Source: an uncultured virus (IMG/VR IMGVR_UViG_3300037397_000012) (lineage: Duplodnaviria > Heunggongvirae > Uroviricota > Caudoviricetes). From it: DNA of 64,000 nucleotides. The notes beneath the pieces were generated by a model. It had not been told where the DNA came from. It was given only the letters and a program-made list of their open reading frames with translations, and did not search any database. Made by a program: the position numbers and the translations under genes. Location: IMG/VR virus record IMGVR_UViG_3300037397_000012; one strand, written 5' to 3'. Below, one piece after another: positions 28,900 to 62,135 of the stretch (its first letter is position 1; every line of letters starts with the position of its first letter).

Positions 28900-30850
<1,951 letters not shown>

Positions 30851-33698: not shown

Positions 33699-33720
33699 AT
33701 TTTTAATAATGTTAATAAAT

Positions 33721-33753: not shown

Positions 33754-33924
33754 ACGATAGCAATCTTCTCTATCGCTAGGTAATGTCATTATCTACAAAA
33801 GTAGAAATAATAAATATATGTATTCTACACTTCCACTAATCATAATGATTATGTGAAAGTGAAAAGATTGAGTACTCTTCTAAGGTTTCCATCTACAAAA
33901 GTAGAAATGTAGAATACATATATT
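33754..33924 (-). CRISPR. Two type V-A (Cas12a) crRNA-handle repeats (mini-array or solitary repeat units); no cas genes in window
   Basis: ATTTCTACTTTTGTAGAT on the minus strand at 33891-33908 and 33791-33808; matches the Cas12a handle AATTTCTAC-TNTT-GTAGAT. Confidence 0.75.
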
Positions 33925-36729: not shown

Positions 36730-37590
36730 TTATCTTTTATAATTAAGTAATAAGTTTTCTCTTGGTTGATTATCAAATGAGCTTTTAAATAAATATCAAG
36801 TATCTAAGTCAATATATTTACTCATTATCTCTGGTTCATATAAACTTAGATTTAGATTCTTTGATTTAGTAGATCTTAGATATGGATAGAAATTAGCACC
36901 GAATGCTATCTTTTTCATATCTAACTTTTCATACATATTTTCTAAATATGTATAATCAATATCAACCTCTTGTTTTTGTCTTCACATTTTCATTAATGGA
37001 AGTAAAACAAAGTAATCAATAACATTACTAAATTTATCATAAATTAATTTAAACATGTCTATTGATTTTTTGTCACTAATCAAAATATGTAAATTAACTT
37101 TAATTCATTCTTGTGTTAATTTCTTAATTGCATACATCCGATGTTTAACTAAATGTAAGTGACAAGTTATAGCTACTCATCAACAATATTCTTTAGTTGC
37201 TTTAATTACTTCATTAGTTAGTCACATACCGTTCGTTGTATAGTTTGGCATGATTCACATATTCTTTAAGCACTTACATAGACTTATAAAATCTGGATGC
37301 TCATTAGGGTTACCACCACCTATCGCTATCTGGAAAGGTTTCTCATTATCTGACATTCATCAGAATATATGTTTAGTCTTTCATATTATATCATCATAAT
37401 GTTTTTCTTTCTTTGATTCTTGATAACAATATTTACATCATCAAGAACAATAATTAGTTATCTTAAGATCATAAAACTCAGGATAGTCTAACTCTAGTAT
37501 AGGCTTACTAGAATCTAATGCTATCCTTATAGTCTTTCATTCATTGAATATTGCTTTATAATTTTTATCTTTAAACTTTCTTATTTTCAT
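36730..37590 (-). CDS. Radical SAM protein, 286 aa
   Basis: YPEFYDLKITNYCSGGCKYCYQ (CxxxCxxC), FQIAIGGGNPNEHP, PNYTTNG. Confidence 0.9.
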
Positions 37591-37640
37591 ATAATATTTT
37601 AAATAAATAAAAGAGAGTAGATAAACTACTCTCATAAGTA

Positions 37641-38081
37641 TTATCAAAGATGATATGAACTAGCATTGAATACATCTTCTATTTTTTCAAAATCTTCATA
37701 ATCAATACTGTTATCTGATTCTGATTCTATTATGATAGTTTTATCATTGATTTTCTTTTCATATCAATACCGTATTTCTATATAATCTTTATTTCAATTT
37801 TTTAATTTTTTTCTTTCATCATCTGTAAGCACAGATAATGGTATTCTACTTACCGTATAACCCCGTTTACTTATGTGCTCATAAATATGTTCTTTATATT
37901 TTGATATTATGAGTTCTCTTTCATATGGTCATCTTATTTCTGCTCACTCTATATTCATATATTGTAACATTTTTTTTATTTCATCTATTGTTTTATCTGT
38001 GTCACAGACAAACAATTCAGTAGAACTATTAGTGATCACATCTATGAAAGAGTGGGTATCTATTAGTAATATTTTTTTCAT
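37641..38081 (-). CDS. Hypothetical protein with SFIDVITNSSTELFVC motif, 146 aa
   Basis: Open code-25 frame adjacent to the radical SAM gene. Confidence 0.6.
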
Positions 38082-38100: not shown

Positions 38101-38598
38101 TTAATTATTAAATAAGTTAAGTTCAGCGTTTCTTCTTTTACTTAATCATCTATAATACTTTGTACCATGTCACCAACCATAGACTGACATTATATATCTA
38201 ATATCATTATATCTACATTGGTTAATGTGATACTTAAGGTTCATCTGGCTACCTCAAGTATTATATATATATGAAGCTATTGCTATCTTTTGATTTGCTG
38301 TATAGCAATCTTTATTAACTAGCTTATATATAGGTACTAGGTGATTATTAAATCTATTAATAGCTTCTTCTTTAGTTATTACTTCTCCTTTATTGGATTT
38401 AGTTCCGTATCATATTGACCGTCTACCATTATCCCAAAAAGCAGTTAGATGTAATGCTCATTCATATTTAATTATAAATGAAGAGATTTTATCTAATTCA
38501 CTCTTGCCATCTACAAAAACATTTTGTTTTTGTTTTTCTTTTATAGTCACATACTTTCATTCTACTTCATTAGAATTACTAGTATATGACTGTGCTAC
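38101..38598 (-). CDS. GH24 phage lysozyme domain (-1 frame relative to the upstream ORF)
   Basis: FIIKYEG...AFWD..R[CGG]SIGYGT...ITKEEA...NQKIAIASYIYNTG...GLSKRRNAE; no in-frame ATG before the catalytic region. Confidence 0.85.
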
Positions 38599-38987
38599 TT
38601 TTTTCTGTATTTCTGTATGTAATTATTATCTTCACATTGTGAAGTATTATAATCTTTTCAATTAACCTTTAAGGTTAATTGTTCTGTTAAACATCTTCAT
38701 ATAAGTAAAGATGTTTCATACTGCTTAGTTGTATCTCTTGTTAATGCTTTATATTTTTTTATATCTTCTAATTTAGAATTAGATAATTCATTTATTTGAG
38801 CTATTGATTCCTCAATCAGCTCAATTTCTGATTTCTTATTCTTTTCTTTTTCAACCTCTTCTTTAAGAGACTCAAGTCTATCCATGTGTGCTTTTTGCTG
38901 AGCATAAACATAATTTCATATAACAGCTCAAACAAATACAATAACTAGAATTATTGGAAAAACAATGTATCAAAATATCTTTTTCAT
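38595..38987 (-). CDS. N-terminal TM plus coiled-coil protein, 130 aa, ending at a slippery site
   Basis: MKKIFGYIVFPIILVIVFVGAVIG anchor plus track ORF 38697-38885; ends AGA AAA AAG TAG. Confidence 0.75.
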
Positions 38988-39652
38988 AAAAAATTATTAC
39001 AAATATAAATTAAAAATTAAATGCTACCCTTTCACTTCATCATTTTCATGAAAGAGTAAAGCATGTAATATCCACTCACTCTATTTTAATCTTATCTTTT
39101 AAAGTTCAATATTCAAGTTTTGAATCATAAAATGATTCCACTCAATAAACTTTTTTTATATATGCTTTTATTCTTTCTATAAAACATAGTTTACTAAATG
39201 TGTTATCTAATTTTTTATTTTTCTTTTCTTTGTCACTCCAAGTGAGTAACATCTTTGCGAATTTATTTCTCTTCATATTTTTTATTTAGTTTTAAAATTA
39301 AATCACAAATTTCATTATATTCTTTTTCTTCATCTTCATCTTCTCATACATAATAATTTGTATCATTATGTATAAATATAAAATCTCATTCTCTGTTCAT
39401 TATTGATTTCAAATCTTCTTTCATCCTATATCTTTCTGAAAAATTAGATGATTCATTTATCCATCTAATTAAATCATCTTCAAAATCATTTTTGTGTTGT
39501 AAGCTGTATTCCAATAAATTATATTCATTAAACACATCATAATTTATTTTTATTCAATCTATATAATAGTCTGAATCTCTATATGTTATTCTACTCATAA
39601 TTATATATTGTTAATAATAAAATAATTCAATAATATTACTGAAAGCATATCA

Positions 39653-39692
39653 GTCACAATCCTTTCGCTCGTGACTGATATGTAGTCAGTGA
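39653..39692 (-). promoter_or_regulatory. Repeated intergenic promoter-like element (copy B)
   Basis: 40-bp identity to 35178-35217; followed on the minus strand by AGTAATATTATT and a gene start. Confidence 0.6.
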
Positions 39693-39931
39693 TATATTAA
39701 CAAAATAAATCAGGACACTCTACTGGATTACATCTCTCTTTACAATTAATGCAATCAAAGTCTGATATCTTATCAATCTTATACGCATGTGGTGTTCAAC
39801 AATTATTACATGTAACTACATTTACATCAAATGTATCTCTTATTATTTCTCATATACTTAACCATAAACCTCAATCATTATTATTATTTCTAATAAAATT
39901 TATTATTTCTTTTTTTGTCATTATATTATAT

Positions 39932-40348
39932 TTAAAAAATAACTATCATTGAGTCGTGCATTCCACATTTATTATCTACCCAATCTCATTTAGTATTCCA
40001 TCAACTAAATTTAATTCTACCTTTAATAAATCTTATTTCTTTTTTATTAGGTAAAATATGTTCATGGAACAATTTTGTAGATGTAGATACAGGAAGTAAA
40101 AATACACATCTCTTTCATTTTTTACTTTCCTCAATTCACTTTAAAACAAATGCTGTTTTTAATTTTAATTCATATGGTGGATTAACATAGTTACTCTGTC
40201 ACCAATCTACTTCTAATCCATTCCACTTATCTAAGTCATGCATAAATGGACATGGATCAAAATCAAAATTAAATTCTTTATTTAATTTATCATAAAAATT
40301 ACTAGGTGTTGCCCAGTCATTTCTATGATCTAAATTTCTGTTCTTCAT
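39932..40348 (-). CDS. Phage N6-adenine DNA methyltransferase, 138 aa
   Basis: DWATP, FDFDPC, VNPPY, LLPVSTST, IRFIKGRIKF. Confidence 0.9.
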
Positions 40349-40701
40349 AAATCTTATTTATTAAATACACAATTTTTCCAAAAAAACTTTTCTGCCTTAT
40401 CTTTATCTCACATAATCATATATCATAATATCTCATTACATATTCATTTGTATCATAAAGTATCTCAAAAAAATTCCTTTGGATATTTACAACATATATC
40501 TTCTAATATATGATAAGCTGTTGATAATAATTTTATATTTCATCATCAATATAAAACTATATTTCTATTTATTATATATTTCTTTTTATCTGAACATAAT
40601 CACCGAACTCTTTCCGTCTTTATTTCACATCAATTATATTCTAATTTTCTACATAACTCCTCACTTAAATAAAAAGTTAATTTATCTTTATTCATAATTC
40701 T

Positions 40702-42186
40702 TTATTTAACTTCTAAATTTTTATTATCTATCTTAGTATAGAATACTTGTAAATCTGATAAATAATCTTTAATTACTTTCTTAATATTTTGTTCAGATAT
40801 TTCAGCATTATCTATAACTATAAAATCTATTACATTATAACTAGTAATAAATATAGAAGCTAGTATTATATCTACAACTCATCTTTCTCATCAAGATAAC
40901 TCATTATATAACTTTCATTTATATTCTATATTAAACTCTGATGAGTACATGTCACCATCAGAATTAGGTGTCTTTCTTTCCTTATAAAATATAATTTTTA
41001 AATCTCATAGAACTAATTTGTCACTAACCCATTCTATAAATTTCTTCTCTGTTTCTTTATATTTATTTATTTTATCTTCTATTTCTTTAGAATTAAAAGA
41101 TTTTATTTTTTCTTCTAATTCTTTTTTTCTTTTTTCTAAAGACTCTTTCTTAGTTTTGTATTCTATATAATCTCTAGATGAATTAGTGTACTCAATATAT
41201 TCTTCTCTATTTCATTTAACTAATTTAAATTCTTTTATTTGTTTCTCTAAATTAGTTTTCTTTTCTTCTAGTAATTTGTTAGATTCTATAATTCTTTTAT
41301 TCTCCTCAAGTCTATTGTTAAGTTTATTTATATGTTCTTTATATTCATTGTATTCATTTAAATTACTTTTAACTAATTTAAATTCTTTTATTTCTTTAAC
41401 TTTATCTTTATACTTATCTCTAAGTATTCACTTTTGTTTATCAGAATCTTTAATTTCTTGTCAACATTTATCACAAACAGTTGGTATGTTTTTTCACTCT
41501 AATACTATTTGATTAAGCTCACTCTTTAATCTTTCTAATTCTTTTTCATTTCATTCAATTAATTTTACTTCTGGAATCTCAGCAAACAAACCTTTAAGTT
41601 CTTCCTCGTTTCATAGATTACTTAATCTATCTTTAAGTAAATCTAATTCATTTTCATTTCATTCAATTAGTTTTATTTCCTTAATCTCTTTTACCTCAAC
41701 TAAATCTTTTAGTTGATTTTCAGTTTCTATAAGTTGCTCTCAATAGGCAATTTCAGTTGTATTAAGATCTCTTAACTCTTGGTTAAGTCACTTAATACTA
41801 TAATCAACCCCATGCTTTTCAAAGAATCAATCTCTATCTATTCATAATAATTCTGAGATTGTTTTCCTTTTATCTTCTTTGGTTTTATTAATTCAAACTA
41901 TTGTCTGATTACCCATAAGAAATCATGGAGTCATAAGTAACATTCTATCTGCTAATCATATTCATCAGAATAACTTTCAGTTTTTACTTATTAAAGTATT
42001 TTTGTTACTATCTATGATAGTAACTTCTCATTTCCTTATAGATGTTTTTCATCTATATAAATCTCTTATAAGTTGTACTATAGTAGATTTACCAGTTGCA
42101 TTCTTTCAGCTAATACAATTTATTTTCTTTGCTGTTATATCTAAACTAATTCATCTAACATCTTTAATGTTTATATTTTTTATCAT
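40702..42186 (-). CDS. SbcC/Rad50-like ABC ATPase, 494 aa
   Basis: Walker A GKNATGKST, zinc hook CDKC within coiled coil, signature LSGGE, Walker B IVIDNAE. Confidence 0.85.
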
Positions 42187-43710
42187 AATTATTTGTTCTT
42201 AATTTTTAAATATCAATTAATAATATCAAATGACTCTTGATCTCTAGGCATAAAAGTAATTTTATCAACTATTATTTTAAGCTTAGTTGGATGCTCTGTT
42301 ATACAGGCTTCCATATTTAATATATCCCTAGGTATACCATATACCCATCATGCATCAGATGGTGTATGTAAAGTCAATCTCTCTTTACTTAATATATCTA
42401 TGGCTTCAATCTTATATCTTGGATTTCAATTAATAGAATTATTAACTCTTTCGTTTTCTATTATTTTTATATATCTATATGTCATATTTAATATATTAAA
42501 TATTAAACTATTAAACTATTTAGTATTTATATGTTACTCAATTAGGTTTTGTTAATAATCATATTAATCATTTATTATTTAATAATAACTCATCAAATAA
42601 TAAATCAATTGTTTTACTTTCATTTTTTATGTTTTCACAAAACATAGATTTTTCATCTTGTAAATTCCATTTTGTTGTAAATTCTATTCATTTATTTACA
42701 ATTATATCTTTATATATTATTCACATTCTAATTTCAATAACTGTAAATAAATTTTTTATGAAACTTAATGCTCCTCTAACCTTATCTATGTCTTCAATAT
42801 TTTTTACTAATACAATATATTTATCATATTCTCACTGAAAGTATCATCTAACTTCAATTTCTATGGTTCTATCTTTAATATATTTTTCAATTTTTTTTCT
42901 CATTCAAAAAATGTGAGAATCAAGATTATAAAACTCTGCTTTCATTTTTCAGTCATCAAAATAAACTTCCATTTCATTTCAATATATATCTATATGTGTA
43001 TATCCTTTATATATTTTTTCAAACATTGAAGTAAAAGAATTATTACTATTTGATATAATATGTATTAAATCTAATATTCAATCTTCTTTTAATCTTTCTA
43101 ATTGTTTTTTTTCAAATGCTTCATAGCATTCAAATAAATTACAAACTACTTTGTATTCTCTTTCCATAAGTTTTTATTATATAAATTAAAATGATCTTAA
43201 TTCAATTCAAAAATATCTCATAATAGCTTGATAAATACATTCAGTATATTTATGCAACTTTATCTGATGTATTTTTCATTCAAATTCTACATTATAATTA
43301 TAATGATAATCTCATAATATTTCTCTCTGTGGATTAATGTTATTATTTATATATAACATATAAATTTCTTTTACATCATTCATATTACTCATTTCTTTAT
43401 CTTTGAAAGTTTTATCTAACTTTCAATTTTTATATATTATTATCATTTATTTTTATTTATAAATTAATATATTCTTTACCTTTTGTTGTTAATTCTGTAC
43501 ATTTTCATACATAAGGACCATAATCAGTATATCATCAATATGACACAATACAAGTAAGTCCTCTGCTCTTTGCTTCCTTTAATAATTTATTATACTTATA
43601 ATTTGTTATTTTCATTTCCATAATTATAAATCTTTTTCTATATCCAATTCTAATTAATTCTAAAAAATCATATAACTCTTTTTCTAAACCTTTTTTAATT
43701 GACATAAATT

Positions 43711-44358
43711 TTATTTAATATATAAATTATTAATTTGTCACAATTCGTAAAGCTTATTAGAATACTCAAGTAGCTGCAACCATACCTTATCATAATACTC
43801 CATATCCTCTGAATCTTTTACTGAATATTTCTTTCAGTTTAGATATAGTATTCTACTTCCACTGTATCAACTAAGCCATCTATATCATGCTAGTTGTAAT
43901 TGATATTTAACAGATTTAAAATTTCTATCAGTTCTAGATGTTTTAAAATCTATAACTGTATCATCTGTTAATCAGTCTATTGTTCCTGTAATTACTGGTA
44001 GTGACTTAAAATTCTTAGAATATAATTTTTCCGATTCTATTAAATTAATTCACTCTTTCAGTAGTGCTAATCTATATTGTATATGAATTCATTCCTTTTT
44101 AGATTTTCATCATTTAATATTTTTCTCTATATCTGAATGAATTCAAGTTCAATATTCACATGCTTCTTTCATTTTATCAGAGTAATATCTTTTACAGAAT
44201 TCCATTGTAGGGTCTATTATTAACCCTAATACTTCTGTAATAGATATTGAGTCATAGTCACGAACCTCTGACCTAGTTCATGTTCTATATGAGTTATAAC
44301 TCAATATGTTATGTAATCAATATTCGTACCTACTTATGAATTCTTTTAATTCTTTCAT
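43711..44358 (-). CDS. PD-(D/E)XK (RecB/Cas4-like) nuclease, 215 aa
   Basis: SITEVL, GTGIH, TGTID, VIDFKTS, YQLQLAGY. Confidence 0.85.
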
Positions 44359-44545
44359 AAATTATTAATTTTCAATTTGTATATGCTAACATTAGCATAT
44401 TATATAATACACTAGTATCTAAATAATGTTCACCTTCTGATTCATTGTACTTAATTAAAGCATCAGAATATTCGTTAATTATATTTTTTATATTTTCTTC
44501 CATAAAAATTACTTACTAAATTAAAAACAATTTTCTACAATCAAT

Positions 44546-45865
44546 TTATTTATATTTTTCTAAATTAGTAATCTTCTGTTTAACTTTATTAAACAGAAGA
44601 GGAACTTCACCAATAGCTCAATGTCTATTTTTCCTTACTACAAAATCTATTATATTTTTTCTCTCAGTGTATTCATCATATGCTTCTTCTCTATATAGAA
44701 ATATAATAGAATCAGCATCTTGTTCTATTGATCAAGAATCTCTTAAATCAGACATTATAGGTCTTTTATCTGGTCTATTTTCTACAGCTCTACTAAGTTG
44801 AGATAAAGCAATAATAGGAACATCAAACTCTTTAGCTAATAATTTTAGCTGTCTAGATATTTCAGAAATCTCTTGAACCCTGTTATTCTTATATCATGGT
44901 TCTTTCATTAACTGTAAATAATCTACAATAACTAAATCTAACTTACTACTCATATTCATGTTTATTAACTTCAACCTTAATGAATCAATATTTATTCAAG
45001 TATCAGTATCAACATAAAGATTACTTTCAGATACTTCGTCAATTCACTCAGCTATATTATCTAGATCTAATCTATTTATTTCTCATGTTCTTAATTTGAA
45101 TCAATTAACATCAGAATAAAATGAAATCATTCTATCTGATAATTCTCTCTCCGACATTTCTAATGAAAAGAATGCTACATTCTTTCACTTCCTTATATTA
45201 TAATCACAAATATTCAAAGCTGTAGCGGTTTTTCACATAGCAGGTCTAGCTGCTATTATAACTAAGTTACCTCAATGCATTCATCATAATAGATTATCTA
45301 ATCAAATCCATCATGTATATGATGTTCTCTTTTTTATTCATAATGGATTTTCTACCATTTCAGCTAATTCATTATATCTTTTTAAAAATAAATCATGAAC
45401 CCTTTTTACTGTACTATTTTTTCATCCTATAGTATTTATAAGTTCATTGATTCATTTTTCTAATTTGCCAATTATAAATTCTGGAGATTCATCTTTATCT
45501 ACTAATAATCATATCTCTCATCATATTCTACCTAATATTCTTAGTTTATATTTTTCTACTATTATATTAAGGTATTCTTTATAATTAGTCACAAACGGTG
45601 TAATTTCTGTTATCTCAGCTAAATAAGTCATTCATCATATTCTTTCTAGAACTCAGAACTTATCTAGTTGTTCCTTGATTGTAACTAAATCTATAGCCAT
45701 CTTTTTACTATATAAAAATGCTATAGATTTGTATATATCCCTATTCTGATCATTATAAAAATAATCAGAACTGATTGTTGATAATACTTCTGGTATTATA
45801 TCTTGATCTATTATCATAGATCATAATAATGATTGTTCAGCTAATAAACTATTTTTTGGTACCAT
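44546..45865 (-). CDS. dnaB: Replicative DNA helicase, 439 aa
   Basis: AARPAM[TGA]KT, FFSLEMS, IVDYLQL, LSQLSR, DLRDSGSIEQDAD, KNRHG. Confidence 0.95.
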
Positions 45866-45931
45866 ATATAAATTCTATATTATGATAATAATATCCTATT
45901 CTTATATATCTTTTATTTTTGTATTCTATAT

Positions 45932-46669
45932 TTACTTTCATATTATTTTTATGTTATATCATAATTTATTTTCTATTTCCTCTATTGTTAATTCTTTTAT
46001 ATCATTATAAAATACTAATTTATTTACATATTTCAATGCAACTCGATTTTGCTTTACTGCTTTTAAACATATATCTTCTGTTTGGTTATGCACATATTTC
46101 AATGCAAGTCAATCTTTCTCTATTGCTGCTAAACATATATCTTCTGTTTTGTCATGCACATATTGTAATGCAAATCAATTTTCCTCTACTGCTGCTAAAC
46201 ATATATCTTCTGTTTGGTTATGCACATATTGTAATGCTTCTCAATCTTCCTCTACTGCTGCTAAACATATATCTTCTGTTTTGTCATGCACATATTTCAA
46301 CATAAGTCAATTCTCCTCTATTGCTGCTAAACATATATCTTCTGTTTGGTTATGCACATATTGTAATGCAAATCAATTTTCCTCTACTGCTGCTAAACAT
46401 ATATCTTCTGTTTGATTATGCACATATTTCAATGCAAGTCAATCTTTCTCTACTGCTGCTAAACATATATCTTCTGTTTGATTATGCACATATTTCAATG
46501 CAAGTCAATTTTGCCTTACTGCTGCTAAACATATATCTTCTGTTTTGTTATTCACATATTTCAATTCAAGTCAATTTTGCTTTACTTTTGCTAAAGCTTC
46601 TTCTCATTTGTATGAGATAATATTTGATTCTTTTAATCAAGACTTCTCTAAAATTTTTTTTAAATTCAT
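45932..46669 (-). CDS. DUF4116-like tandem-repeat protein, 245 aa
   Basis: About nine 21-aa units QTEDICLAAVxxxGxALxYVH; C-terminal KELTIEEIENKLGYNIKII. Confidence 0.8.
46025..46590. repeat. 63-bp coding tandem repeat (~9 units)
   Basis: Recurring gctaaacatatatcttctgttt at 63-bp spacing. Confidence 0.9.
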
Positions 46670-47080
46670 TTTTTTATTGTTAATATTATAAAAATTATTT
46701 CCATATTATTCTTCATAATAATGTATTTATTAAATTACTATCTCTTAATGATTTGTTTTTCTTATTTTTTAAATAATAATATTGTATTATATTATTTTCA
46801 TTTTTTCTGTGTTCTCTTTTTAAAGTAGCCAAATCTGGAACTTCTTTAAATCAATCTCAATATTTTTTTATTTTAAATTCTATGAGATTCATATAATCTT
46901 TCCTATTCATAATATTTATTGTTAATAATATTCGTCAGAAAATTCATATCAGTTAAAGCAATGTCAATTTTCACAAATAAATCATCAAATGCTACCATCT
47001 GAAATAATTGGCAATCAACAAGTAGGGCATAATTCTAATTCATCCATAATATATAAAATATTAAATAAAATAACTTTTTA

Positions 47081-47434
47081 TTACATACAATCACAAATTC
47101 AATCAGGATGTTCAATTCAGAAACTACATATAAATGTTTTTCTTTTTATCTTTTGTATTCATTCTTTCTGAATCCATTTAATTATAGTTCTGTAATGATC
47201 TTTATATTTAACTCATCTTCTATACATGTAAGAATCTAAATCCTGTATTTTCTGAATTACTATTTTTTTTCAATAAGCATGATATAGCTTATGCTTTTCT
47301 TCATCAGATAATAATACAAGATTATTTATTCAAAGCTTTTTAGTATTATCTTCATTTAAGAATTCTTTAATCTTTTTTATTTTATCACTATCTGAAATTC
47401 TTTTTCTTAATATTGATTTAATTATATCTTTCAT
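47081..47434 (-). CDS. Replication-initiator C-terminal-like protein with Cys/His tail, 117 aa
   Basis: NLVLLSDEEKHKL...YKDHYRTIIKW resembles phage replisome-organiser C-terminal domains. Confidence 0.55.
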
Positions 47435-47639
47435 ATATTAAATTGTAATTCATATAAGCTTTAATTCCTCCCTAGCTTTCTTATATCATTTTTCCTTTAT
47501 TAGTCTATATACTCATTCTTTATTTTTTACATTTATTCACATCTATTTAATTAGTTTAAAAAATAAAAATGGGGTAATATAAAATAAATATCCCCCATAT
47601 CTTCTTTGTACTAAATTTATAAACCTTTTTAGTATACTA

Positions 47640-48533
47640 TTAAAAAGGAATATCTTCTATACCTATATCATCACCAACTTCTTGCATAACCTCTTCTGCT
47701 GTTTTCTGTACTGGTGATTGCTGAACTTGCTTAGTTTGTTGTGTATTCTGTGCCACAGGCTGCACAATCTCTACTTCTTTTACTTCTTCCTCTGGTTTTG
47801 CATACTCTTGTTGTTTTCAAACCTCTCAATATTTATTTTTATAAAACTCTCTATTTCATGGTAGGAATGCTAGTATTTCATCATTCTTCTTTCTTACTTC
47901 ATCTTTTTGTTCTTCTGTAGCCTGTACTCAAGTTCAGGTAATATTAAACATATATCTTGCTGAGTATTTTTGGGCTTCTATTCATTTAAGCTTATTTAAT
48001 TCTTCTTCTGAAATTCTTTCTTTTGTTTCTGTATTTTCAAATTCCATTACTCACTTAATTGAACATACCTCATTTGGATCTGCTTCTTTTAAGAAATCCA
48101 TTGCTGTTCAAAAATTCTTTCATGAAAGAAATATTTCTTTTAGCATTCAATCATTTAGATCTAATATTGTTATCGCTAAATGTAGTGATGCTTTTCACTT
48201 AATATTTTCTTTGATATCTGTTGTCCGATATCATTTTAATACTAAGTCACTAACCGATCATGAACTAAGAAATGTATGCTTAACAACATATAGTGGTTCA
48301 TTCCAATCTTTTATCTCATTTGATGTATAACTTGCTGTAAATTTATTAGCAGTTTTATCAAATACATTTCACTTTAATGTATATCAAATATCTACAATTA
48401 AGAAATTATCTAAATCATGTATTATGTTATCTTGTTTTTCTTTAACCCGTTCTACAAAATCTGTTTTATAAGTTTTAAGAAAAACCTGTACTGGGTTACC
48501 ACCACTTTTTTTAACTCTATCTTTCCAATTCAT
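47640..48533 (-). CDS. ssb: Single-stranded DNA-binding-like protein, 297 aa
   Basis: Acidic C-terminal tail DDIGIEDIPF; located in the replication module. Confidence 0.6.
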
Positions 48534-49058
48534 ATTATAAAAATATTAAAAATATAAAATAAAAATAATTTTGGAAAAATTAATTATTTATAATAAAAAA
48601 TTATTTATTTAAAATTTCCAAAAAAATTACTAGTAAATTCATAAGAATATTACAAAAAAATTAAAAATCAATATATCATAATTTTCGTTAGAAAATTAAA
48701 TACATCACAGTTTTCGTTAGAAAACTTTCTATACATTATATAGATAATATATTTTATATCAATCTAATATGTGTAGATATGTGACTGTTATGTAGTCGGT
48801 CACATATTATTATTTAAATTTTTCATAACACTCACTTAATGTTTTGTATTCTGTTTTTATGAAATCATACTTAGGTTTTATATTTTTAATTAAATATTTT
48901 CATTTACTTTCTGATTCTATCATTAATTTCTTATCTTCTTCTGAAATATTTTTGTATACATACACAAATGCTCATCTAGTAAAATGTGTAATTAAATCAT
49001 TACCTCTAAATATTGCATTAAACATTGAAGATTTTAATATATCTTTTTCATTCATAAT

Positions 49059-49559
49059 TTATATATGTTTATTAATAATATTTATTGCTTCTTTATATCA
49101 GTAGCAAACATAAGCTGATGCTCATTTATTTAAAAATTCTATCCATTCTATTTGTTCGTCACTAACAGAAGTTCAGTTAGCTCCTCATCTTTTTCATTTA
49201 GCTTTTTTAAGCTCAATATAGATTGGAGAGTTATTTCATTCTTTATCTTTTAAAAAGATAATATAATCTGGGAATCATTTACTTACTCAAGATGCTTTTT
49301 TCTTAGCCATCATTATTACTATATTCTTTGTTCCAGCTTGTCACGACTCATTTGGTATATGAGTGTGTCTTATTCACTTATCACTTAACCGTTTATGTAA
49401 TATTTTTCAATGTTCATATTCAGTTAATTTTGTGTATTCTTTTTCTGGTTTTATTTTTTTCTGTTTTTCCTCTTCTGGTTTTAGTCATGCTATATTATAA
49501 ATTCTATCAGCTTCATCTTTACCTAACATTGATAATAAATCTTCATAATTGTAGTTCAT
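49059..49559 (-). CDS. VRR-NUC nuclease, 166 aa
   Basis: LHK[CGG]LSDKGIRHTHIPNE, GVSKGFPDYII, IYIELK, VSDEQIEW. Confidence 0.9.
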
Positions 49560-49857
49560 AATTAAGTTAAATTATTATATCTTATTATCTTGCTCAAGAT
49601 TTCTTTTTAAGATAAACGAATAAACATATATCAATAACTACAATAATAATAAAATCTGATATTCAATTAAATATAAATATATTTAATATAGGTATAATTA
49701 CTGATACAGTTTTTTCTAATTTATTATTTCATTTAAATATCTTTTTATATCAAAATATTATTATATTACATATAACATATTTATAAAATAATTTAATTCT
49801 ATTTCTTATTACATTTACAGAAATATTATCTATAAATTTTTCTGATTTCATGGTATA

Positions 49858-50859
49858 CTAGTTAATAAATAATATATATAATATAAAAGTTAAATACATA
49901 ATCAATAAATTGAATCAATAAATCTTTTTTATTACTCATTTACTGTTTATTGAATATGTTGTTACAACATATACGATAACCGAAAATATTAAAAATGCAA
50001 ATATAGGGATTATAGAATTAAATTCAATAACTGGATTTAATCACATAAAACTAGTTCATATAAGTATAGGTACTCATAATCAAATGCAAACATCAAAAAT
50101 ATTTGATCAAACTGCATTTGATAGACTAGCATCTATATTTCATTTCCTAGAAGATTTTACTGATAATAATGTATCTGGTATAGATGTTATTGCTGCTAAT
50201 AATACTAGCGATATTACTATTGTAGATATTCAAAACATGCGTCATATAAATTCAGCACATCTTATTGATAATTCAACTCATATATAAGTTAAAAATAACA
50301 TAAATATTATTTTTATAAACTTAATATTTGGTAGCCATGTTATAGTATCATCTGTATCATCATCTTCTGATTTACTTTCCATATATAAATATATTATATA
50401 AAAGCAATATAAAGATATTAACAATATAGACATTATAAATAAGTTACCAACATACAATCATGCAAGTAATATAATTATGCTTAACATGTAAAATATAACA
50501 TCTCTGTTTACTCAGTTAATTATTTTGAATCATTTCCTACTAACTCTCTTATATAAAAGAATAGAACAAAATGGTATTATTAATATATTAAAAATAGCTG
50601 ATCATGATATTGTTCATATTCAAACTTCTAATCCTTTTTCTTTTAATAAAATCAAACTAATAATTGCCGTTAGAAATTCAGGCAATGAACTTGATATAGC
50701 ATCTAGTGTTGCTCATCTAACAGATCAAGTCATTTTAAACTTATTTCATATTATAGATAACTGATCTTCTAGTTCTCATGTAGCATAATTTATTAAAAGC
50801 ATACATCATAATAATGTAAAAATAACTCAATAAATATTTCAAACTAATATATTTAACAT
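49858..50859 (-). CDS. Cation/Ca2+ exchanger (CaCA, YrbG-like), 333 aa
   Basis: alpha1 GATLDAISSSLPE...GSAIFN; alpha2 AAITSIPD...NAVGSNIFD; many TM segments. Confidence 0.9.
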
Positions 50860-50913
50860 TCTTAATTATATATTTAAAAAATAAAAGCCAAGCAATAACT
50901 TGGCTTATTATCA

Positions 50914-51441
50914 CTATAGAGATTTAACAACCTCTTCAATGTTACCTTTAAGATAATCTCACATAGCTTTAAAACTATATCAGTCATCTTTGTCAGTTAC
51001 AACACCTACTACTATAGCAGTATTGTCACCACCATTTTCTGTCATCTTATATGATGCAAGAACCTCATCAGTCTCGTCATTGTAAACTTTACATTCAGCA
51101 TTGTTTACATCTTTCAATGTTTGTCATTTTTTATCTGCTTCATATATATTTACACATATAAAGTATTCACCATCTGCAGTTAAAACGGCATCCATTTTAG
51201 CAAATTCATCATCGCCATCTCATTCACCAGTTAGATTATCATCAGATAATTGAACTCATTTTATTGCATTCTTCTTATTGAAGTAAGCAACCTTATTACT
51301 ATCTTTATGAAATATAAATAGATCTAAATCCATAGTTTTCCCTTCAGAAACATCCCAAGATAATCATACTCTTATCTTAGATATATTAGTTCAGTCTTCT
51401 TTTTTTAGGTCTAGACTTTGACCTTTAGTTAAATCCAACAT
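50914..51441 (-). CDS. terD: TerD-family protein, 175 aa
   Basis: LDLTKGQ, VGLSWD, MDLDL, DNLTGEGDGDDE. Confidence 0.9.
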
Positions 51442-52236
51442 AATTATATATGTTAAAAAATAAAATATTGAGTAAATAAAAAAACTCAATGTGCGTGTTG
51501 AGTTTTTCCTTGTATCATAATCAATACAAATCACGCACTCATCTGTATTGATGTTTATCATATTATTATTTTTTTTATTTAAGTCAAATTATTTTTTAAA
51601 AAATTATAAATCTTTTCGTAAACTTCTTCTGTTTGTTCGTCTAGGGATTTTTTATTATTTAATTTAATTCTTAATTCTTTAAACATATAATTGAAAATTA
51701 AATTACCTCATACAAGAGATAAAAAAATTTTATTTTCTTCACAAAACCACTCTAGGTGGTGTCTATGTATAGGGTTTCAGATTATTTTTATTTCAAAATT
51801 ACCTTCTTCAAGATTTAATAATTCCATTCAAAAAATAAAATTATTATCATTCAATAAAATATATTCTTCTCAATTAGGTGTTTCTATTCAATAGTCATAT
51901 TCATTAGTATCTAATATTTTTAATATTGTTCAAAACTTCAATTCTTCCAAATCATCCTTTATCTCTGGAATTGTTTTTAATAATTCTATTAGTTTATTTT
52001 TATAGTTCATATTTTTTAATTAAATTATAAATATTATCTTTAAATTATATTATAAACTTTATTATTTTAAACTTAAATAATTATCATAAAATTCTTCTAC
52101 TAGATTTTGTATATCATGTAATTTATCTAGCATTTCTTGATCTTCTATAAAGTCTTCTTTTACTTCCTTTTCTATTCAGTCAACAAATTCAAATATTAAC
52201 ATTCATTCATTTTTAGATGGATACCATCCATATATA

Positions 52237-52626
52237 TTATCCATAAATTTTATTTAAATAATTAATACAATAACCTCTTTGGTTATCTCACCTAATTCAA
52301 TTATGTATATTATGGTGACACTGTCTACATAGTCACACTCATTTTTGTTTAGTATTTCTATCTTCTGTATACTCTGCTTGTCATCAAAAATAAACATGAT
52401 GATAATCGGTTATTTGTCACTGACATATGATACAAACCTTATCTCTATTAAATATCTTCTTTTTTGTCTCTATTGAAAATAACGCTGTTCTTCATTTATT
52501 TGATGTATCTTTTTGTATCTGTTTAGATTCTTTTTGCTTATTATAATAACACTTTATACATAAAGACATTAAAGGATTATTATGATTCTTTTTTCTTCAA
52601 CACTTTTTGCATTTGTTTTTTTTCAT
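52237..52626 (-). CDS. HNH endonuclease with CxxC motifs, 129 aa
   Basis: RDKVCIIC...DYHHVY...RN...LCRQCHHNIH. Confidence 0.75.
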
Positions 52627-54913
52627 AAAAATTATTTAATTCTATTTAAATGTATATCATATCAATAATAACTAACTCATCAATAAGTTATATTACAATA
52701 TATTTTTCTTTTTCTGTATTTCCTTCTTTGATGTTTTTTTGTTTTTATCTTTAAGATTCAAACACGACTCCATAATTCATAATTCATAATCATTAAGTTC
52801 ATAAAATAAACCACTTGGAATTTTAGATCTATTATAAGCTGTTCATGCTGATGATATTTATATATATAGAGTATGTTCATTTGTTTCCCATATTCTAATT
52901 TATTAAATAATTATAATATTATGACTCACTTATAATTTTAAAATTAATATTATCATTACAAGTATACTTATATTTTCATCATCATATTCAAAAGTGACTT
53001 CAGCAATTAGGGCAGTATTCACTCCATCTATCTATATCTGCAGAACAATATTCACAATAATATCCTTGATATTCTCTATTTATTTTATGTTTACTACATA
53101 ATAAATATTCCATTGTTCATATATGTAATATTTGTCACGGATCATCTCAAGCTTTTATTATAGAGTAATCCTTTCAACATACAACACATTTAAAATTATT
53201 CATTTTAAATTTTTTATCAAATTAAACTATAAATTGAAACTATTTTATTATTAAATGAATCATATATCTTATTCTTAAATCTACCTCGTAGATGTACGAT
53301 ATACTTTATTCATTTTAATTCAAATATTATTTTTCAATATTTCTTTTTAAAACTAAAGTTATTTTTAATATACTCAATTGTATCTATATGTTTTATGATC
53401 TTATTTGTTATTCATTTTAATTTTTCCAATATAGTCACAAACATATCTGTTACACTATAGGTATTACATCTATACTTATTATTATTACACTTAACCATTC
53501 ATTTAAATTTTATGTATCAATGAATTCTTAGGTGATTAATAAAATTAAGCATTTGTCTCTCTGATAATCAGAATCTAATTCACTCAAGTCTAGATATTCA
53601 TATTATTCAATATGTTTGAAATCTAACTTTTATTGTAAATAATATTCTATTAACTTGTTTTTCTGAAATATTTTTAAATAAGTTATTTAAATCTTCCATA
53701 ATTTATAAAACAAAAAAGAATACAGTTGCCTGAATGTATTCTTTTATAAGTTAGTTTTTTTAAAAACTCTCAGGCAAATGAGTTTCTAAAAATGTATCTC
53801 CTCAAATTTATGAGTATATAATAATAATTCTAAAAATAAAATCAAATCTTTTTTTTTATTTATTTAAAATAATCTATTGATAGCTCAAGATAAAGCTAGT
53901 TCTCATATTATAAATTTTTTCCTATCTATTAAACTTTTCTCTGTTCAATATGTAACCATTCAACAACTATAACATATTTCAACTTCTCATTCATTATAAG
54001 CTATTTCTATTCAATCTTCTCTATAATATTTATTTCACGAAAATTTAAATCAGTTTATTTTCATTATATTTGCAAATCTCATATTTTCCATTTTCTTTAT
54101 TTTAATAAATTAATAAAATTTTTTTCAACATCCATGATTTTAATCTGTTTCATTAATTTTATTTTTTCACTTTTACTCAAATTGAGATACTTAAAAAAAA
54201 TATCTCTAGTTTCTCTTTTCATTCAATCTAACTCTATTAAACTCATTTTAATAATTATTATCTAATAAATTAAACCACCTTGTATATTCAATCCTTTCAT
54301 AACTTATATTCATCAAATATGTTTTTTATAAATATGGAGGACTAAGTTTAGCCCATAACCTAGGGGTCATAACACCCTAGGATAGAAAAAGAAACCTCGT
54401 AGGTTACACGAAATTATTTATGTTGCAGTTAAATTACTATCCATGTTAGTACTATACATAAATAGCTAGAGACCTTTTATCTAGAACAAGGTTTTAACAT
54501 CTCTATGTTATATATATCTATGTATATATATATAATAAGAAGTGTTAAATTATAGCTCCACCAAATGAGCTACTCTTAGATATTTTATATAAAAAATAAT
54601 CATTAACCTTTTATCCAATTGTTGATGTACCACATCATAGTTGGTTAAACCAATTGCTTTCAGCTAAACATTAAACAATGATCAATCGTTTAATATCCTT
54701 ATCATTTTAAATAAAAGGCTACTGATTATCTTTTATAAAACAAAAAAGCTAACCAATTGGTCAGCTTTTATTACCTAAGTTTGACACCTAGATGGGTCAA
54801 CAGTACTAGGTGCTGACCAAACCTAGGTAACTGTTTTGTTACTTTACAAGAAGTAAAGACAATAGAAAATGCTTATATATATTAATATTTTTTTTTATAA
54901 TTGCAAATGTTTT

Positions 54914-55438
54914 TTATATTTTCATTAATTTATCATAACACATCTTAATTATTTTTGCATCAAATAATGCATTATGCTTTATTGTTTCTCACTTGTATCA
55001 CACAAAGTCTTCTCTTGTTATATCTGGATCTACTCACTTTACTTTCATCAATGTACATATATCAAATGGAATATAATATATATTACTAGGTAGATTAGGG
55101 TATCAATCCTTGTAATCCGCTAATAATGTATTAAACAAAACCCAGTCATAAGATAAACAATCACTCCATACTTCTATATTATCTCATTTATCTTTTATCC
55201 ATTTAAGTAATTTACTTCTAATAAATTCTTTTGTTCATGTGAATTCATTCTCATTATCGTGACTTATATCAATATTACTTATTACATTTTCTCTTATCCA
55301 GTTATTACATTTTGTCACATCATAATCTGTAAACTTTCAATAGAAAGTATCTCAGTCTTCTGATATTAATCATATACTTATTAGCTCTGTATATTGTATT
55401 AATCATGTAAACTCACAATCAAAAAATATTTTATTCAT
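54914..55438 (-). CDS. DEDDh 3'-5' exoribonuclease (Rv2179c-like), 174 aa
   Basis: IFFDCEFTG, LISIGL, WSDCLSYDWVLF, HNALFDA. Confidence 0.85.
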
Positions 55439-56045
55439 TATATATTATTAAAAATTATTGTATCTTTTTTCTTATAGTATTTAAATCTATAGCCTGTCTT
55501 ATTGTATCATCTTCTACAAATACAGCCAATGTATTAGCTAAATTTCATAATAATAAATCTAATAGTTCTTTAATTTCTGGATTAATTCATGAAGTAACTA
55601 TTACTTCTTTTTGAGATAATATTTCAGTTAAATCTCTGAGTCTTTCATTGTCACAATCCATTATTACACTTTTATCATATTTCTTATTCTGCTCTTTTTT
55701 ATCTTTATTTCATAATCAAAACATTGTATCTTTATTAAAATCTAAATTAATTTTTTATTTATCAAACAAAATAAAAACCAAAATGTATACATCATATTCT
55801 AAATAAATTTCTAAATCATTTATAAATAACTTTTCAATCTTTAATAAAAGAATCAAATATAATAATATGATTAAATTTTAAATTTAAATAACAATCTTTA
55901 TGTATTCAAAATCTTTTATATCAAATATTATTATTCAATAAAAATTTTTCTATTTTATCTATTTTATTATTTTTTCTTTTTTTCATCCTAATCAAAACAT
56001 TTTTTATATATTATTTATTAAATCAATAAGTATTTATTATAAAAA

Positions 56046-56654
56046 TTATTGATTATAAAAATCATCTATTAGCTTATATATACTTTCAAGTAATCTATCT
56101 TCCATTCTATAATTATATTCCAAACGTTCTTTTTCCTCTTTTAATAATTCATATTCTTCTTTTAACTCCATGTATTTCATTTTATAATCAATCTGTTCAT
56201 CTTCTCATTTATAATTCATAGCATACCATCATAAACACTTATTGTAACTTCTTCTATTTTCAATAACTCTATCATCTGCTCAATATCAATTACCATTACC
56301 TGTATTAGCTTCTAGTATTATTATTCAATCATTATAAGACTCTAAGACTATAGCAACATGTCACATGGTTCAATATTCCCAAAAAATAAGATCTCATATA
56401 TTAGGTTTCAATCATTTTTTATAATTTGTTTTTTTAAAAAAATAATCTCAGTTTTTCTGTCAATGTAAAAAATTTTTTTGAAACGCATTTTTTGCATTTC
56501 CATAAAAGTATATTGATGGAATTCAAAATTGATCTCTTAACCATAGTTTAGCTAAATCCACGCATTGTCCTCAAAAAGCTCAGTCTATATCTATAGATTG
56601 TCAATACTTTCAAAGCCGTTTTTCTTTGAATTCTTTAATGTTTAATTTGCTCAT
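56046..56654 (-). CDS. CHAP-domain endolysin, 202 aa
   Basis: K[CGG]LG...DIDGAFGGQCVDL...GNAK...GDLIFW...GHVAIV...LEAN. Confidence 0.9.
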
Positions 56655-56698
56655 AATTTAGTTAATAATAAAATAAAAGCAGTCTCGTGTGATTTTCT

Positions 56699-56899
56699 CT
56701 ACACTACTGTATTTTTACTGTTAATAATTCTGTCTTCTTCCTTGTGGATATTATAAAGTATTTCTTTTAATTCTTTTAACACTCTTTGTGTTGTTTCGTT
56801 CTCATCATGATATAAAATATTTTCAACTTCTAAAATAATTTTTTCTATCATCTTTTTTTCAACTTCTAGTATTTCTAAATTTTTCATAAATGCTGCCAT
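56699..56899 (-). CDS. Hypothetical protein, 66 aa
   Basis: Track ORF; TTGACA -35 box upstream on the minus strand (56971-56976). Confidence 0.55.
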   Translation of the reverse strand: MAAFMKNLEILEVEKKMIEKIILEVENILYHDENETTQRVLKELKEILYNIHKEEDRIINSKNTVV

Positions 56900-57060
56900 T
56901 AATATAATAATATATTAAGATATAATACTTTTCAATCCTCACTTATATATATTAGTGTATCACTAGTTAATGTCAAAAGATTTTATATAGTTTTTTACTT
57001 GTTTTTTATATGACTATTATTATAATAAATATGTATTTTTTATTTATTAATAATATTATT

Positions 57061-57519
57061 ATGACAAATATTAAGGTTCTAATTGATAATTTAAGAAAAG
57101 ATCTTTTTGAAAATTTAGATAAATCTAAAAAGATACTTTCTATACTTAAAGAAAATCCAGCTTTCCCATATAACCTAGAGATTGAAGCAGCAAAATGTAT
57201 ATGAGAAATAAGAACTGCTACATTAAGATATAAAAACATACTTAAATACTTAGAGAATGATAACTCTTTATTGTCTTTAGATAATATAAGAGAATTAACA
57301 AAAGACGAAAAAGATGAGTTTAAAAAACTTCGAAAAGAAAGTAAATCTCTTCCAGATGATTGACCATGAATGAATACTGATGATAGACATAGAATGCTGT
57401 CTTTAATGTTTCTTGATCAAGCCAATAAACTTAAAGATATGGCAATTAAAGAAAATGATGAAAATGCAAAGAAGCAAGCATTAAGAAATTATGAATGATA
57501 TATTAAGTATTCAAAATAA
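57061..57519 (+). CDS. Hypothetical protein, 152 aa (only clear plus-strand gene)
   Basis: Open through four TGA codons to TAA; TTGTTT...TATAAT upstream. Confidence 0.7.
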
Positions 57520-57531
57520 TTTGTAATAATT

Positions 57532-57563
57532 AAAAAAGACTATGAATTAATTCTAGTCTTTTT
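57532..57563. terminator. Bidirectional intrinsic terminator
   Basis: aaaaagacta...tagtcttttt between convergent genes. Confidence 0.7.
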
Positions 57564-57786
57564 TTGGTGTCTTAAATTTTCAGTATATTAAATTATATAT
57601 TCTTTCTTGTATTTCTGTTCTGTTACATTCCATTATACCATCTAGCTGTGACTGATCTATATCAATCTTATCTGTAAATGTACTACTGTTTACCGTATCA
57701 GAATCTCATTTTCTTAATGACATTCTTCAATCTCTATAAGTATCAATTGTAACTAATACCATAAAATAATATTTTTAAATTTTAAA

Positions 57787-58368
57787 TTATCTATTATATA
57801 ATATCTTTGCTAGTCTTCATGGTGATATTGATATAGCATCAACTCAACATAATCTTTTTATCTCCTGTAATCAAGCAGTAACTACCTGAGAACAAAACCA
57901 TGAATCTTTTTTATAAAACAAAAGTGTTTTAAATATTTGAGCAAATACTATTCAAACATAATTATATCTTTTGTTATTTTGTTTTATACAAAAATTTAAT
58001 ACATCTAAATATTGTTGCTTACTTACTTCTATATCATGATAATCCCAATTTCATTTATTATCATCTATAAATTTAAATCTTGTTCATCAGTCAACTTCTG
58101 ATGATGAAAACCGTAAGCCATATTTTAACCAATCATCAAAGCTATAACATTTCATATTTGTATTCAATACAATACTAAAGATTCTACTAAATATATCTTG
58201 TTTTGATTTTAATATAGTATTTACATAATCTCATTTAAATACCAATTCAACATGAGAATACTTACTAAACTCTCACAGTTTATCAATATTCTTTTGTTTA
58301 AACCTTATAGCTTTTCAAAAGTTGGTTTTAGAATTTTTATAAAAAGCTACTCTGATTATATAGTGCAT
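57787..58368 (-). CDS. Permuted papain-like (YiiX/YaeF-type NlpC/P60) enzyme, 193 aa
   Basis: YSHVELV precedes WFCSQ (His-before-Cys permutation); [CGG]FSSSEVDGGTRFK. Confidence 0.8.
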
Positions 58369-59684: not shown

Positions 59685-62135
59685 TTAAACTACAACTTCA
59701 AATCAACTTCAAAATATTTTTTTACTTCAAAGCGTTCATCATGAATTATTATAGAACCTATAACTTATTTTATCTCAAGCTGAAAAACTAACTTCGCTAG
59801 TATCACTGAAAATTCAAGTAGTCCCAAATGTTATATTCAATGCAGTGTCAACTCAATTTTTTCTTAAAATAAAATTTCAGTTTGTTGTTCAATTAAACTC
59901 ATAGATGTATATAAATAAATTCTTAATTGTGCAATCTACTGGTACAACTGAAAAATATGCTTCTATTCATAATGAACTATCTAATCAAGGTGCTCAATAA
60001 TAACTATTAGTATCAGAAACTCATGTATTTAAAGCATGAGCATATGTGCATATAGAATTTCAACCTCCTCAACTAGGTGTTTGCCATTCTGGTGCTGTAG
60101 CTCAAGCATTCATTGTTAATACCTGGTCTGCTGTTCATTTTGCAAGTCTAACATTATCGCTTCAATTATGGTAAATTATATCTCATTGTGTTGTTGTTGG
60201 TGCAAGATTATCAAATGCAACAGTTTTTGTACTTCAACCTGTTCATCAGTCAGCTATAGCTAAATCAGTTATTCAACTTATACTTCATCCTGTTATACTA
60301 ACTGAATTACTGTTTTGTGTAGCAATGCTTCATAGTCACAATGTGGTTCTTTGAGCTGAATTATCAGCATCATCTAACAATGCTCTTCAGGCAGTTGTAC
60401 AAGTTATTTCTTCAACATCTCAAGCTCAAGCTGTACTTCTTCATAATAGTTTATCAGTTGCACTAACATTCTGCATTTTAGCATATGTTACTACATCATT
60501 ATCTATTGTCCATGTAGTTCAACTTCAAGATACTGTTATATCTCATTTGTCACCATCAGCAATTCATCCAATATTATCATCTACATATTTTTTATTTGCT
60601 ACTTGATAATCTGTTGTTGGAGATGAACTTGGTGTAATTAGAAAGCTTGAAAATGTTTTAACTCATGCTATTGTTTGATTTCATGTAGTAGCTACTGGAG
60701 TTATTTGTGTTGGATTTGTTACTATAAATTCTCAATCTTTATCTGGAAGTACATATGTATTTGCTGTAGTTGTTGGTAATAATGATACATCAAAATATGC
60801 CTTTTTAGTTGGATCTACATCATCAACTAAATAAGTTGAATTAGCATCTAGTCATTTATTTTGAAGTACCTCTGAACTTGTTGCACTAATTAATGTAATG
60901 TCACTATCTGGTATTATAATAGTTCTTGTTGTTCAAGTTGTAATTCAAGATACTTGGAAATTTATTTTTTTTGTAATATCTTCTTCATCAAATATTGTAA
61001 AATTATTATCTGCAAAACTTGTATTAAATGCATTAACTCATCAAGAGGCTGTTAATGGTGTTAAACCCCTTAGATCTGTAGTAGATACTACACCCCAAGT
61101 TCACCCTCAAGTTTTCATTTGTATTGTTACTCTTGCAATTAGAAATCAAGTTGAACTTTCTTTTGTAAAAGAATCAGGAATTGAAAAGTTATCATATCCA
61201 CTTATATCATTTTTGGCATCTGTTTCATTAGCATATATTCATCATGGTAAATTAATCATTATAGGATTATATGTTCAACTCTTATTCGCTACAGCCCAAA
61301 ATACTAAGTTAAAAAATTTATTGTTTCATATTAATGTACCTGTGCTATCAGATGTTATATCATATAAATTAGTTATTGATTTATATGGTGTTACACTATC
61401 ATTTATAACTAAAGCATTATCTCAAGTACTAGTATCTAATGCTGTTACTGTTTGCCTGTGCATTTGATAAATTATTCAAGCTGTAGACTTAAATTCTACA
61501 TTACCAGCAGTTGGTGACAAATATCAATCTGTACCATTTCAATCAATACCTGAATAATAAGTAGCAGGAAAGTGTCTTATTTTTTCTCATATATGAGATA
61601 AATGTCATTGGTTATTATCAAAAGCTAATTCATCATTCCGATTTTGATTTATATATACACCATTAGATTGTACATAAGTTGCACTAGGAACTAAGAAATA
61701 AGCTATCTTTATATGTTCTACATCTGTTGGAAATCAAGTTGTAGATTTAGTTAGTAACTTAGTGCTTTTAAGTATATATATAAAATTCTCTTGCGGTGAA
61801 CTATCTGATCCAGCTGTTAATTCTATTGTTAAAGCAGGCGTACAATCTAAAATTGTTTCTCAATCAGATAGATGTAAAGTTAAATCTCCTCATCCAGATT
61901 TCTCTATACTCATTGTTATAGTTGTTCAATTTGAGGATACTGTAGCATCAAATTTTTCAGCTATTGTTCAATTCCAAAAATCTCTAAATTCTCAAAATGA
62001 AATTCTATTTTCATTTCATGATGAATCTAGTCAATACAATAAATCATCAGATTTAAAATACAACTTATTAAATCATGTGTCTGGATTAGATGGTATATCT
62101 ATATTTTGTATCTCTAATGCTTTTAATTTTTTCAT
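59685..62135 (-). CDS. Tail fibre protein, 816 aa
   Basis: DGDKGDITVSG, VTYAKMQNV, GRALLDD...QRTTLGLG, LAIADGGTG fibre motifs. Confidence 0.8.

Follow-up and report, generated by a model that had tools for sequence, protein, structure and literature searches.

The DNA of the uncultured virus IMGVR_UViG_3300037397_000012, of which a stretch of 64,000 nucleotides was analysed here (the window), raises the question of whether a phage can use a code with two altered codons, UGA read as glycine and CGG read as tryptophan. The initial annotation had proposed this from four in-frame CGG codons at positions where tryptophan is expected, and had noted that such a code was inferred for Absconditabacteria. 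This agrees with Shulgina and Eddy (2021, eLife 10:e71402, PMC8629427), who, in the parts of the paper drawn on here, predicted computationally that CGA and CGG now encode tryptophan, and UGA glycine, in Absconditabacteria (SR1), and that CGG is reassigned to tryptophan in some Gracilibacteria. Our analysis supports the proposal of a doubly recoded host code. CGG behaved as a tryptophan codon at every position open to a column test, seven codons in six genes, against a background of TGA as glycine, and the window very probably belongs to a phage-like genome that uses the code of a host reading UGA as glycine and CGG as tryptophan.

The GC content of the window was about 25% (22-29%), and long open reading frames (ORFs) appeared only under genetic code table 25. 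This table gave 81 ORFs that occupy 88% of the 64 kb, and 73 of these are on the minus strand. The ORFs contained 1097 in-frame TGA codons against 219 GGN codons, which makes TGA the main glycine codon. TGA was also found in the I-G-Y-G motif of the lysozyme and at the glycine position of eight DUF4116 repeats. The claim that TGA encodes glycine is well founded, and the window is open only when TGA is read in this way. Family matches of the lysis and virion type comprised a GH24 lysozyme, a CHAP endolysin, a holin, a tail fibre and a weak head-tail adaptor match. Replication and nuclease matches included DnaB, a second helicase, a replisome organiser, VRR-NUC, PD-(D/E)XK nucleases, an SbcC-like ATPase, RNase H and an HNH endonuclease, and further matches were to a Dam methylase, a radical SAM enzyme, TerD, a Na/Ca exchanger and a NifU-like protein. 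Phage hallmark genes and dense in-frame TGA thus occur together, and the genome is phage-like. No library recognised a capsid or a terminase among the window proteins, and a 737-aa protein guessed to be the terminase was not confirmed, having no match in a tblastn search of GenBank phages. Database entries of the window proteins sit on a 67,120-bp contig, and a salt marsh metagenome, the only sequencing run found to contain the window DNA, is probably its source.

In-frame CGG was present 17 times, in minus-strand genes in 16 cases and once in a doubtful plus-strand ORF; genes are on the minus strand below unless stated otherwise. The four CGG codons named at the outset were all confirmed, CCG on the plus strand being in-frame CGG on the minus strand. 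The counts were 17 for CGG, 7 for CGA, 6 for CGT, 5 for CGC, 557 for AGA, 85 for AGG and 93 for TGG, and they bear out the earlier remarks that TGG is also used and that arginine is mostly AGA or AGG. CGN codons made up only 35 of about 18,800 codons, a depressed usage that accompanied low GC and arginine written as AGA. Codons ending in G accounted for 17 of these 35, versus 161 of 4386 (3.7%) in the seven other four-fold boxes (P = 1e-15), and CGG was about 13 times too frequent for an arginine synonym. Likewise, AGA:CGA stood at 557:7 versus 85:17 for AGG:CGG (odds ratio 15.9, p = 6e-10). The ratio of TGG to CGG, 93:17, did not differ from that of TTR to CTR, 1121:236 (p = 0.69), the only standard synonym pairs with T or C at the first position. 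By these ratios, CGG is used like a synonym of TGG and unlike one of AGG. If read as tryptophan, CGG would supply about 15% of the tryptophan codons.

Individual sites were assessed by reading CGG as X and tallying the homologue residue at that column. All columns except the two of the SSB-like gene rest on standard-code DNA or solved chains. In the GH24 lysozyme gene (38101-38550), CGG codon 44 (38419-38421) lies in the motif N-G-R-[CGG]-S-I-G-Y-G, in which the first glycine after the CGG is TGA and the last is GGA. With CGG as X, tryptophan was aligned at the site in one of five solved GH24 chains, HMMER having shifted the other four. With CGG as W, tryptophan aligned with tryptophan in all five, within the motif G-x-W-T/S-I-G-Y/T-G; every chain scored 3 to 5 bits higher, with an alignment that now reached as far as the catalytic region. 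The scores also increased from 42.2 to 46.6 bits (+4.4) for PF00959 and from 56.4 to 64.1 bits (+7.7) for phrog_7. The tryptophan originally expected in the lysozyme was thus borne out.

The radical SAM gene (36730-37635) carries CGG at codon 166 (37138-37140). Its orthologues were reached through the family of the neighbouring gene 37641-38081, at 74 viral loci. Among 60 standard-code orthologues with 40-57% identity, the column held W in 53, K in two, and I, S, T, A and N in one each. Control codons of the same gene aligned with arginine (AGA19 in 61 of 61, AGG37 in 61 of 61, AGA219 in 49 of 60). The protein had no match among solved structures.

In gene 57787-58368, of the phrog_1128 family, CGG codon 86 (58111-58113) falls in G-L-[CGG]-F-S-S-S-E-V-D-G-G. 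The 73 distinct standard-code homologues had W 52 times, S 9, A 8 and C 4 times, with no R, which upholds the tryptophan postulated at this position. The name "permuted papain" given to the product was not confirmed, as there was no Pfam match and the phrog_1128 label differs.

Two further genes gave columns shared between tryptophan and tyrosine. CGG codon 57 (49389-49391) of the VRR-NUC nuclease gene (49059-49559) aligned with W 21 times and Y 8 times at 29 viral loci, and with W 25, Y 25, Q 1 and no R at the 51 covering viral and metagenome loci found by tblastn. Among 15 protein-database homologues it aligned with Y 9, F 2, W 2 and H 1, one row not being read off. The control TGG139 aligned with W in 54 of 54, and the match among solved structures fell short of the CGG site. 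The SSB-like gene (47640-48533), whose C-terminal tail ends in DDIGIEDIPF, contains CGG at codons 29 (48447-48449) and 103 (48225-48227). An exhaustive profile search yielded 13 homologues, with W 9 and Y 4 at codon 29 and W 10 and Y 3 at codon 103, while the control AGA193 aligned with R 9 and K 2. The tryptophan earlier placed in VRR-NUC was thus found in about half of the loci, with arginine in none.

The CHAP endolysin gene (56046-56654), with CGG at codon 13 (56616-56618), was the weakest of the four examples first put forward. Its column held valine in 54 of 77 distinct homologues, and otherwise Y 14, K 3, H 2, W 2, I 1 and N 1. The helix at the N-terminus has a conserved tryptophan (W 56, F 19), but at that column, four residues upstream of the CGG, the window has phenylalanine, so the suggestion of a conserved tryptophan at the CGG column itself did not hold. 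The part that stood is that the site is aromatic in the subtype of the window. Positions four apart in the helix covary (loci L219-L298), W going with V in 53 of 56 and F with Y or W in 16 of 19. In the 19 homologues with phenylalanine at -4, as in the window, the CGG column held Y in 14 and W in 2, with segments such as FKNRWLGK and FKANWLGR against FKEK[CGG]LGK in the window. These patterns suggest that an aromatic residue, and not specifically tryptophan, would be expected here.

The tolerance of tyrosine in the VRR-NUC and SSB-like columns counts against tryptophan, and raises the alternative that CGG encodes tyrosine. Y was common in VRR-NUC (25 of 51), in the SSB-like protein (4 and 3 of 13) and in the CHAP subtype (14 of 19). 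The other columns speak against it, with W in 5 of 5 lysozyme chains and no Y at all in the radical SAM (W in 53 of 60) or 57787-58368 (W in 52 of 73) homologues. The anticodon CCG is also one change away from the tryptophan anticodon CCA (PMC8629427, as far as drawn on here). When log-odds were summed over six columns, leaving out CHAP, the totals were +35.4 bits for W, -2.0 for Y and -22.5 for R. We therefore regard a tyrosine reading as hardly credible.

The same totals bear on the possibility that CGG is ordinary arginine, which the phage would tolerate where relatives have tryptophan, the rest being chance. An arginine codon should align mostly with arginine, and the initial annotation had staked its proposal on that point; none of the 292 residues aligned to the seven CGG codons in six genes was arginine. 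AGA and AGG codons of the same genes did align with R, and the roughly 13-fold over-representation of CGG at 25% GC is likewise at odds with an arginine synonym. Reading CGG as W changed the PHROG scores by +4.1 (phrog_7470), +0.9 and +0.4 for CHAP families, +0.9 for VRR-NUC and +0.3 for phrog_1128. In the control, AGG read as W cost 16.0 bits in phrog_19 (DnaB) for six codons, 5.3 bits in phrog_1128 for one, 4.1 in phrog_77 and 2.6 in phrog_6819, and one family gained 0.6. Since Pfam has signal at only one CGG site, that of the lysozyme, a Codetta-type inference would lack power on this contig if it used Pfam alone.

Several observations weigh against tryptophan, and some of them are those that an arginine reading would predict. 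PHROG profiles of other radical SAM subfamilies slightly favour R at the CGG site (-0.2 to -1.3 bits for W); these profiles are not orthologous and are overridden by the direct orthologues, which give W. Only 7 of the 17 CGG codons provided column evidence, and the other ten did not. Both CGG codons of a giant ORF lie in stretches rich in lysine and arginine and look arginine-like. The CHAP column is mostly valine across the family. The W count at 57787-58368 overstates its independence, because closely related sequences make up many of the rows with W. The tryptophans of the SSB-like homologues come from gene calls in which TGA was read as W, and could in principle be glycine. The SSB-like CGG columns held no G, unlike the 15 TGA columns of the same alignment (W 65, G 16, and no Y among the eight commonest residues), and for this reason they act as true aromatic columns. 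Finally, a single assembled contig from one sample underlies all results. Taken with the absence of arginine at every informative column, we consider it very unlikely that CGG is ordinary arginine, and tryptophan remains the preferred reading.

The ten CGG codons outside the column evidence are distributed as follows. Codons 73 and 104 of gene 37641-38081 (37863-37865 and 37770-37772), whose family has about 120 members, map to columns that are variable or inserted and are uninformative. For codon 15 (27377-27379) of gene 26939-27421, which encodes an HExxH protein, a weak match to phrog_6445 rose from 22.8 to 24.5 bits with W and then extended over the site; no GenBank phage homologue was found by tblastn. 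Two more lie near the C-terminus of the 4629-aa ORF 12646-26535, at codons 4221 (13873-13875) and 4475 (13111-13113), and are those in lysine- and arginine-rich contexts. Codon 114 of gene 26554-26949 (26608-26610) and codon 31 of gene 40354-40695 (40603-40605) are in genes without a family match, codon 71 of gene 36204-36488 (36276-36278) is outside a weak DUF7336 match, and codon 166 of the tail-fibre gene 59685-62135 (61638-61640) is outside the matched regions, the N-terminus of that protein having no GenBank phage homologue by tblastn. The last (30876-30878, plus strand) is in ORF 30606-30890, which has no support as a gene; it was counted in the 17 and left out of the evidence.

The giant ORF 12646-26535 contains 324 in-frame TGA codons and has no Pfam match. 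It probably encodes a giant virion or injected protein, and its C-terminal 530 aa had no GenBank phage homologue by tblastn. The small gene 37641-38081 adjoins the radical SAM gene (36730-38081 together) and has the invariant motif HSFIDVITNSSTELF. Radical SAM homologues were found at most 3.5 kb from a gene of this family in about 60 of the 74 viral loci (L065-L138), and the pair forms a conserved two-gene phage module.

The contexts in the giant ORF would also suit a CGG that is ambiguous (tryptophan and arginine) or in mid-reassignment in the host, the phage placing it mainly where tryptophan is needed. Ambiguous translation cannot be excluded according to PMC8629427, as far as it is drawn on here, and Gracilibacteria vary in how CGG is read. 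Within the window, the structural block (3883 codons) has no CGG, 0 of its 19 tryptophan-type codons versus 15 of 74 elsewhere (p = 0.035), a weak signal. The lysozyme and radical SAM sites are near-invariant tryptophans, where a mixed product would be costly, and there was no direct sign of two meanings. An ambiguous CGG is therefore improbable in our judgement.

A further explanation is that the DNA encodes arginine and that C-to-U RNA editing converts CGG to UGG before translation. An apparent CGG-for-tryptophan code in plant mitochondria turned out to be C-to-U editing of this type. Editing and reassignment are indistinguishable from DNA alone, as a single C to U suffices. Scans with family libraries recognised no editing enzyme among the 81 ORFs, and we know of no site-specific C-to-U editing of such kind in phages or Candidate Phyla Radiation (CPR) bacteria, which also counts against it. 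Neither the codon-usage signature nor the published predictions of host tRNAs need editing as an explanation, and we think it extremely unlikely. Reassignment of CGG to tryptophan thus remains the explanation that we favour.

For CGA, the picture was different from that of CGG, its frequency being like that of the rare CGT and CGC. None of the seven CGA codons lies in an informative column. Gene 45932-46669 encodes nine tandem DUF4116 repeats, in which a glycine is written TGA in eight and CGA in the ninth, a degenerate one. The initial annotation had suggested that this last repeat, QN[CGA]V (46043-46045), might carry tryptophan. The codon aligns with TGA (glycine) in all eight other repeats; because the column is glycine elsewhere, it is uninformative on arginine versus tryptophan, and the suggestion of tryptophan was not borne out. 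A CGC codon in the Na/Ca exchanger faces L in a solved chain and was an uninformative alignment as well. The usage of CGA would be in keeping with a host where CGG alone has changed. It is a rather doubtful but conceivable extension that the host code consists of UGA as glycine and CGG as tryptophan alone, with CGA a rare arginine codon or unassigned (a split CGR pair in the code-25 lineage), and that CGG is kept out of virion genes.

We then considered how such a genome appears in public data. In three public proteins of the contig (P0001, P0017 and P0019), TGA is translated as tryptophan and CGG as arginine. Public assemblies contain homologues of three window proteins (VRR-NUC, SSB-like and 37641-38081) whose database translations have W at positions where the window has glycine (TGA). 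Two of these related TGA-recoded proteins carry an 'R' in a column otherwise occupied by W or W/Y, P0148 in one with W 9, F 1, Y 1 and I 1, and P0023 in one with W 77 and Y 37, which counts in favour of the tryptophan reading. This is the appearance that CGG or CGA would have if read as arginine by the gene caller. No close code-25 relative was found in viral contigs with DnaB, the SSB-like alignment or a degenerate motif pattern, or in a single-protein scan with 57787-58368. A metagenome scan returned only homologues of at most 47% identity, none longer under table 25 than under table 11. Scans of genome contigs with the VRR-NUC alignment and a degenerate motif pattern gave no host contig.

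ARAGORN found no tRNA in the 64-kb window, and no Rfam family was detected there either. Since no tRNA was seen, reliance on the host is proposed. The phage would most likely use a tRNA of the host whose anticodon is CCG (or UCG) and which is charged by tryptophanyl-tRNA synthetase. The decoders proposed in PMC8629427 are tRNA-UCG and tRNA-CCG; a decoder with tryptophan identity would have G73 and lack A20. The positions of the codons, the tryptophan or aromatic columns that they meet and the signature in codon usage are shown here, and from them we infer the decoding tRNA, the host clade and the tryptophan in the protein, and Gracilibacteria with CGG reassigned to tryptophan would fit as host as well as Absconditabacteria.

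The window shares several features with the Absconditabacteria code as described in the parts of PMC8629427 drawn on here, namely UGA as glycine, CGG at conserved tryptophans, low GC, rare CGN and arginine written almost only as AGA or AGG. It differs in being phage-like and in having more CGG (17) than CGA (7), the reverse of most Absconditabacteria in that paper, and it provides neither a CGA-at-tryptophan column nor a tRNA. Liu et al. (2023, mBio, PMC10746230) described code-25 phages and prophages of Absconditabacteria and Gracilibacteria, which the window resembles in its dense in-frame TGA, unreadable in code 11. The main text of that paper, taken without its Zenodo supplements, contains no mention of CGG, CGA, Codetta or arginine. 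Two phage assemblies reported in PMC8629427 follow the AGG-to-methionine reassignment of their RFN20 Bacilli hosts without a tRNA of their own. The present phage is similar in adopting a reassigned arginine codon of the host, with no decoding tRNA of its own seen in the 64-kb window. It is unlike them in codon, amino acid and host phylum, and in that the change comes here on top of a stop-codon reassignment. Full-text literature searches found no report of CGG reassigned to tryptophan in a phage. The finding is thus of a phage following a doubly altered host code of a known type, not of a new code.

Some other features of the window were recorded. ORF 62567-64000, which runs past the window end, is glycine-rich, with 117 TGA codons in 477 aa and about 13 consecutive glycines; it has a weak Gly_rich_2 Pfam match, and code 4 would turn it into poly-tryptophan. 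Region 28900-33900 contains only small or plus-strand ORFs without family matches, and the GC skew becomes positive at 28-32 kb; this region could mark the edge of a module or an origin. Host-like accessory genes encode a NifU-like protein (4546-4938, within the structural block), a membrane protein of the Na/Ca exchanger family (49858-50859) and a TerD-domain protein (50914-51561).

To our knowledge, bacteria have few sense-codon reassignments, each of them a computational prediction. The CGG codons at invariant tryptophans of a lysozyme, a radical SAM enzyme and a nuclease give independent support for the reassignment in the host cell, and the gene set offers usable positions at which it can be tested. 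There are direct consequences for annotation. Standard annotation mistranslates this genome, table 25 would still place arginine at about 15% of its tryptophan sites, and the public translations of P0001, P0017 and P0019 contain two kinds of wrong residue per protein. If the CGR pair is indeed split and virion genes are free of CGG, the second recoding would influence in which genes CGG can occur, and phage codon usage could map code variants among uncultured CPR hosts. These results indicate that viruses track a second recoding of their host besides the first. Hosts with the standard code should be unable to read a doubly recoded phage, which is relevant to its host range.

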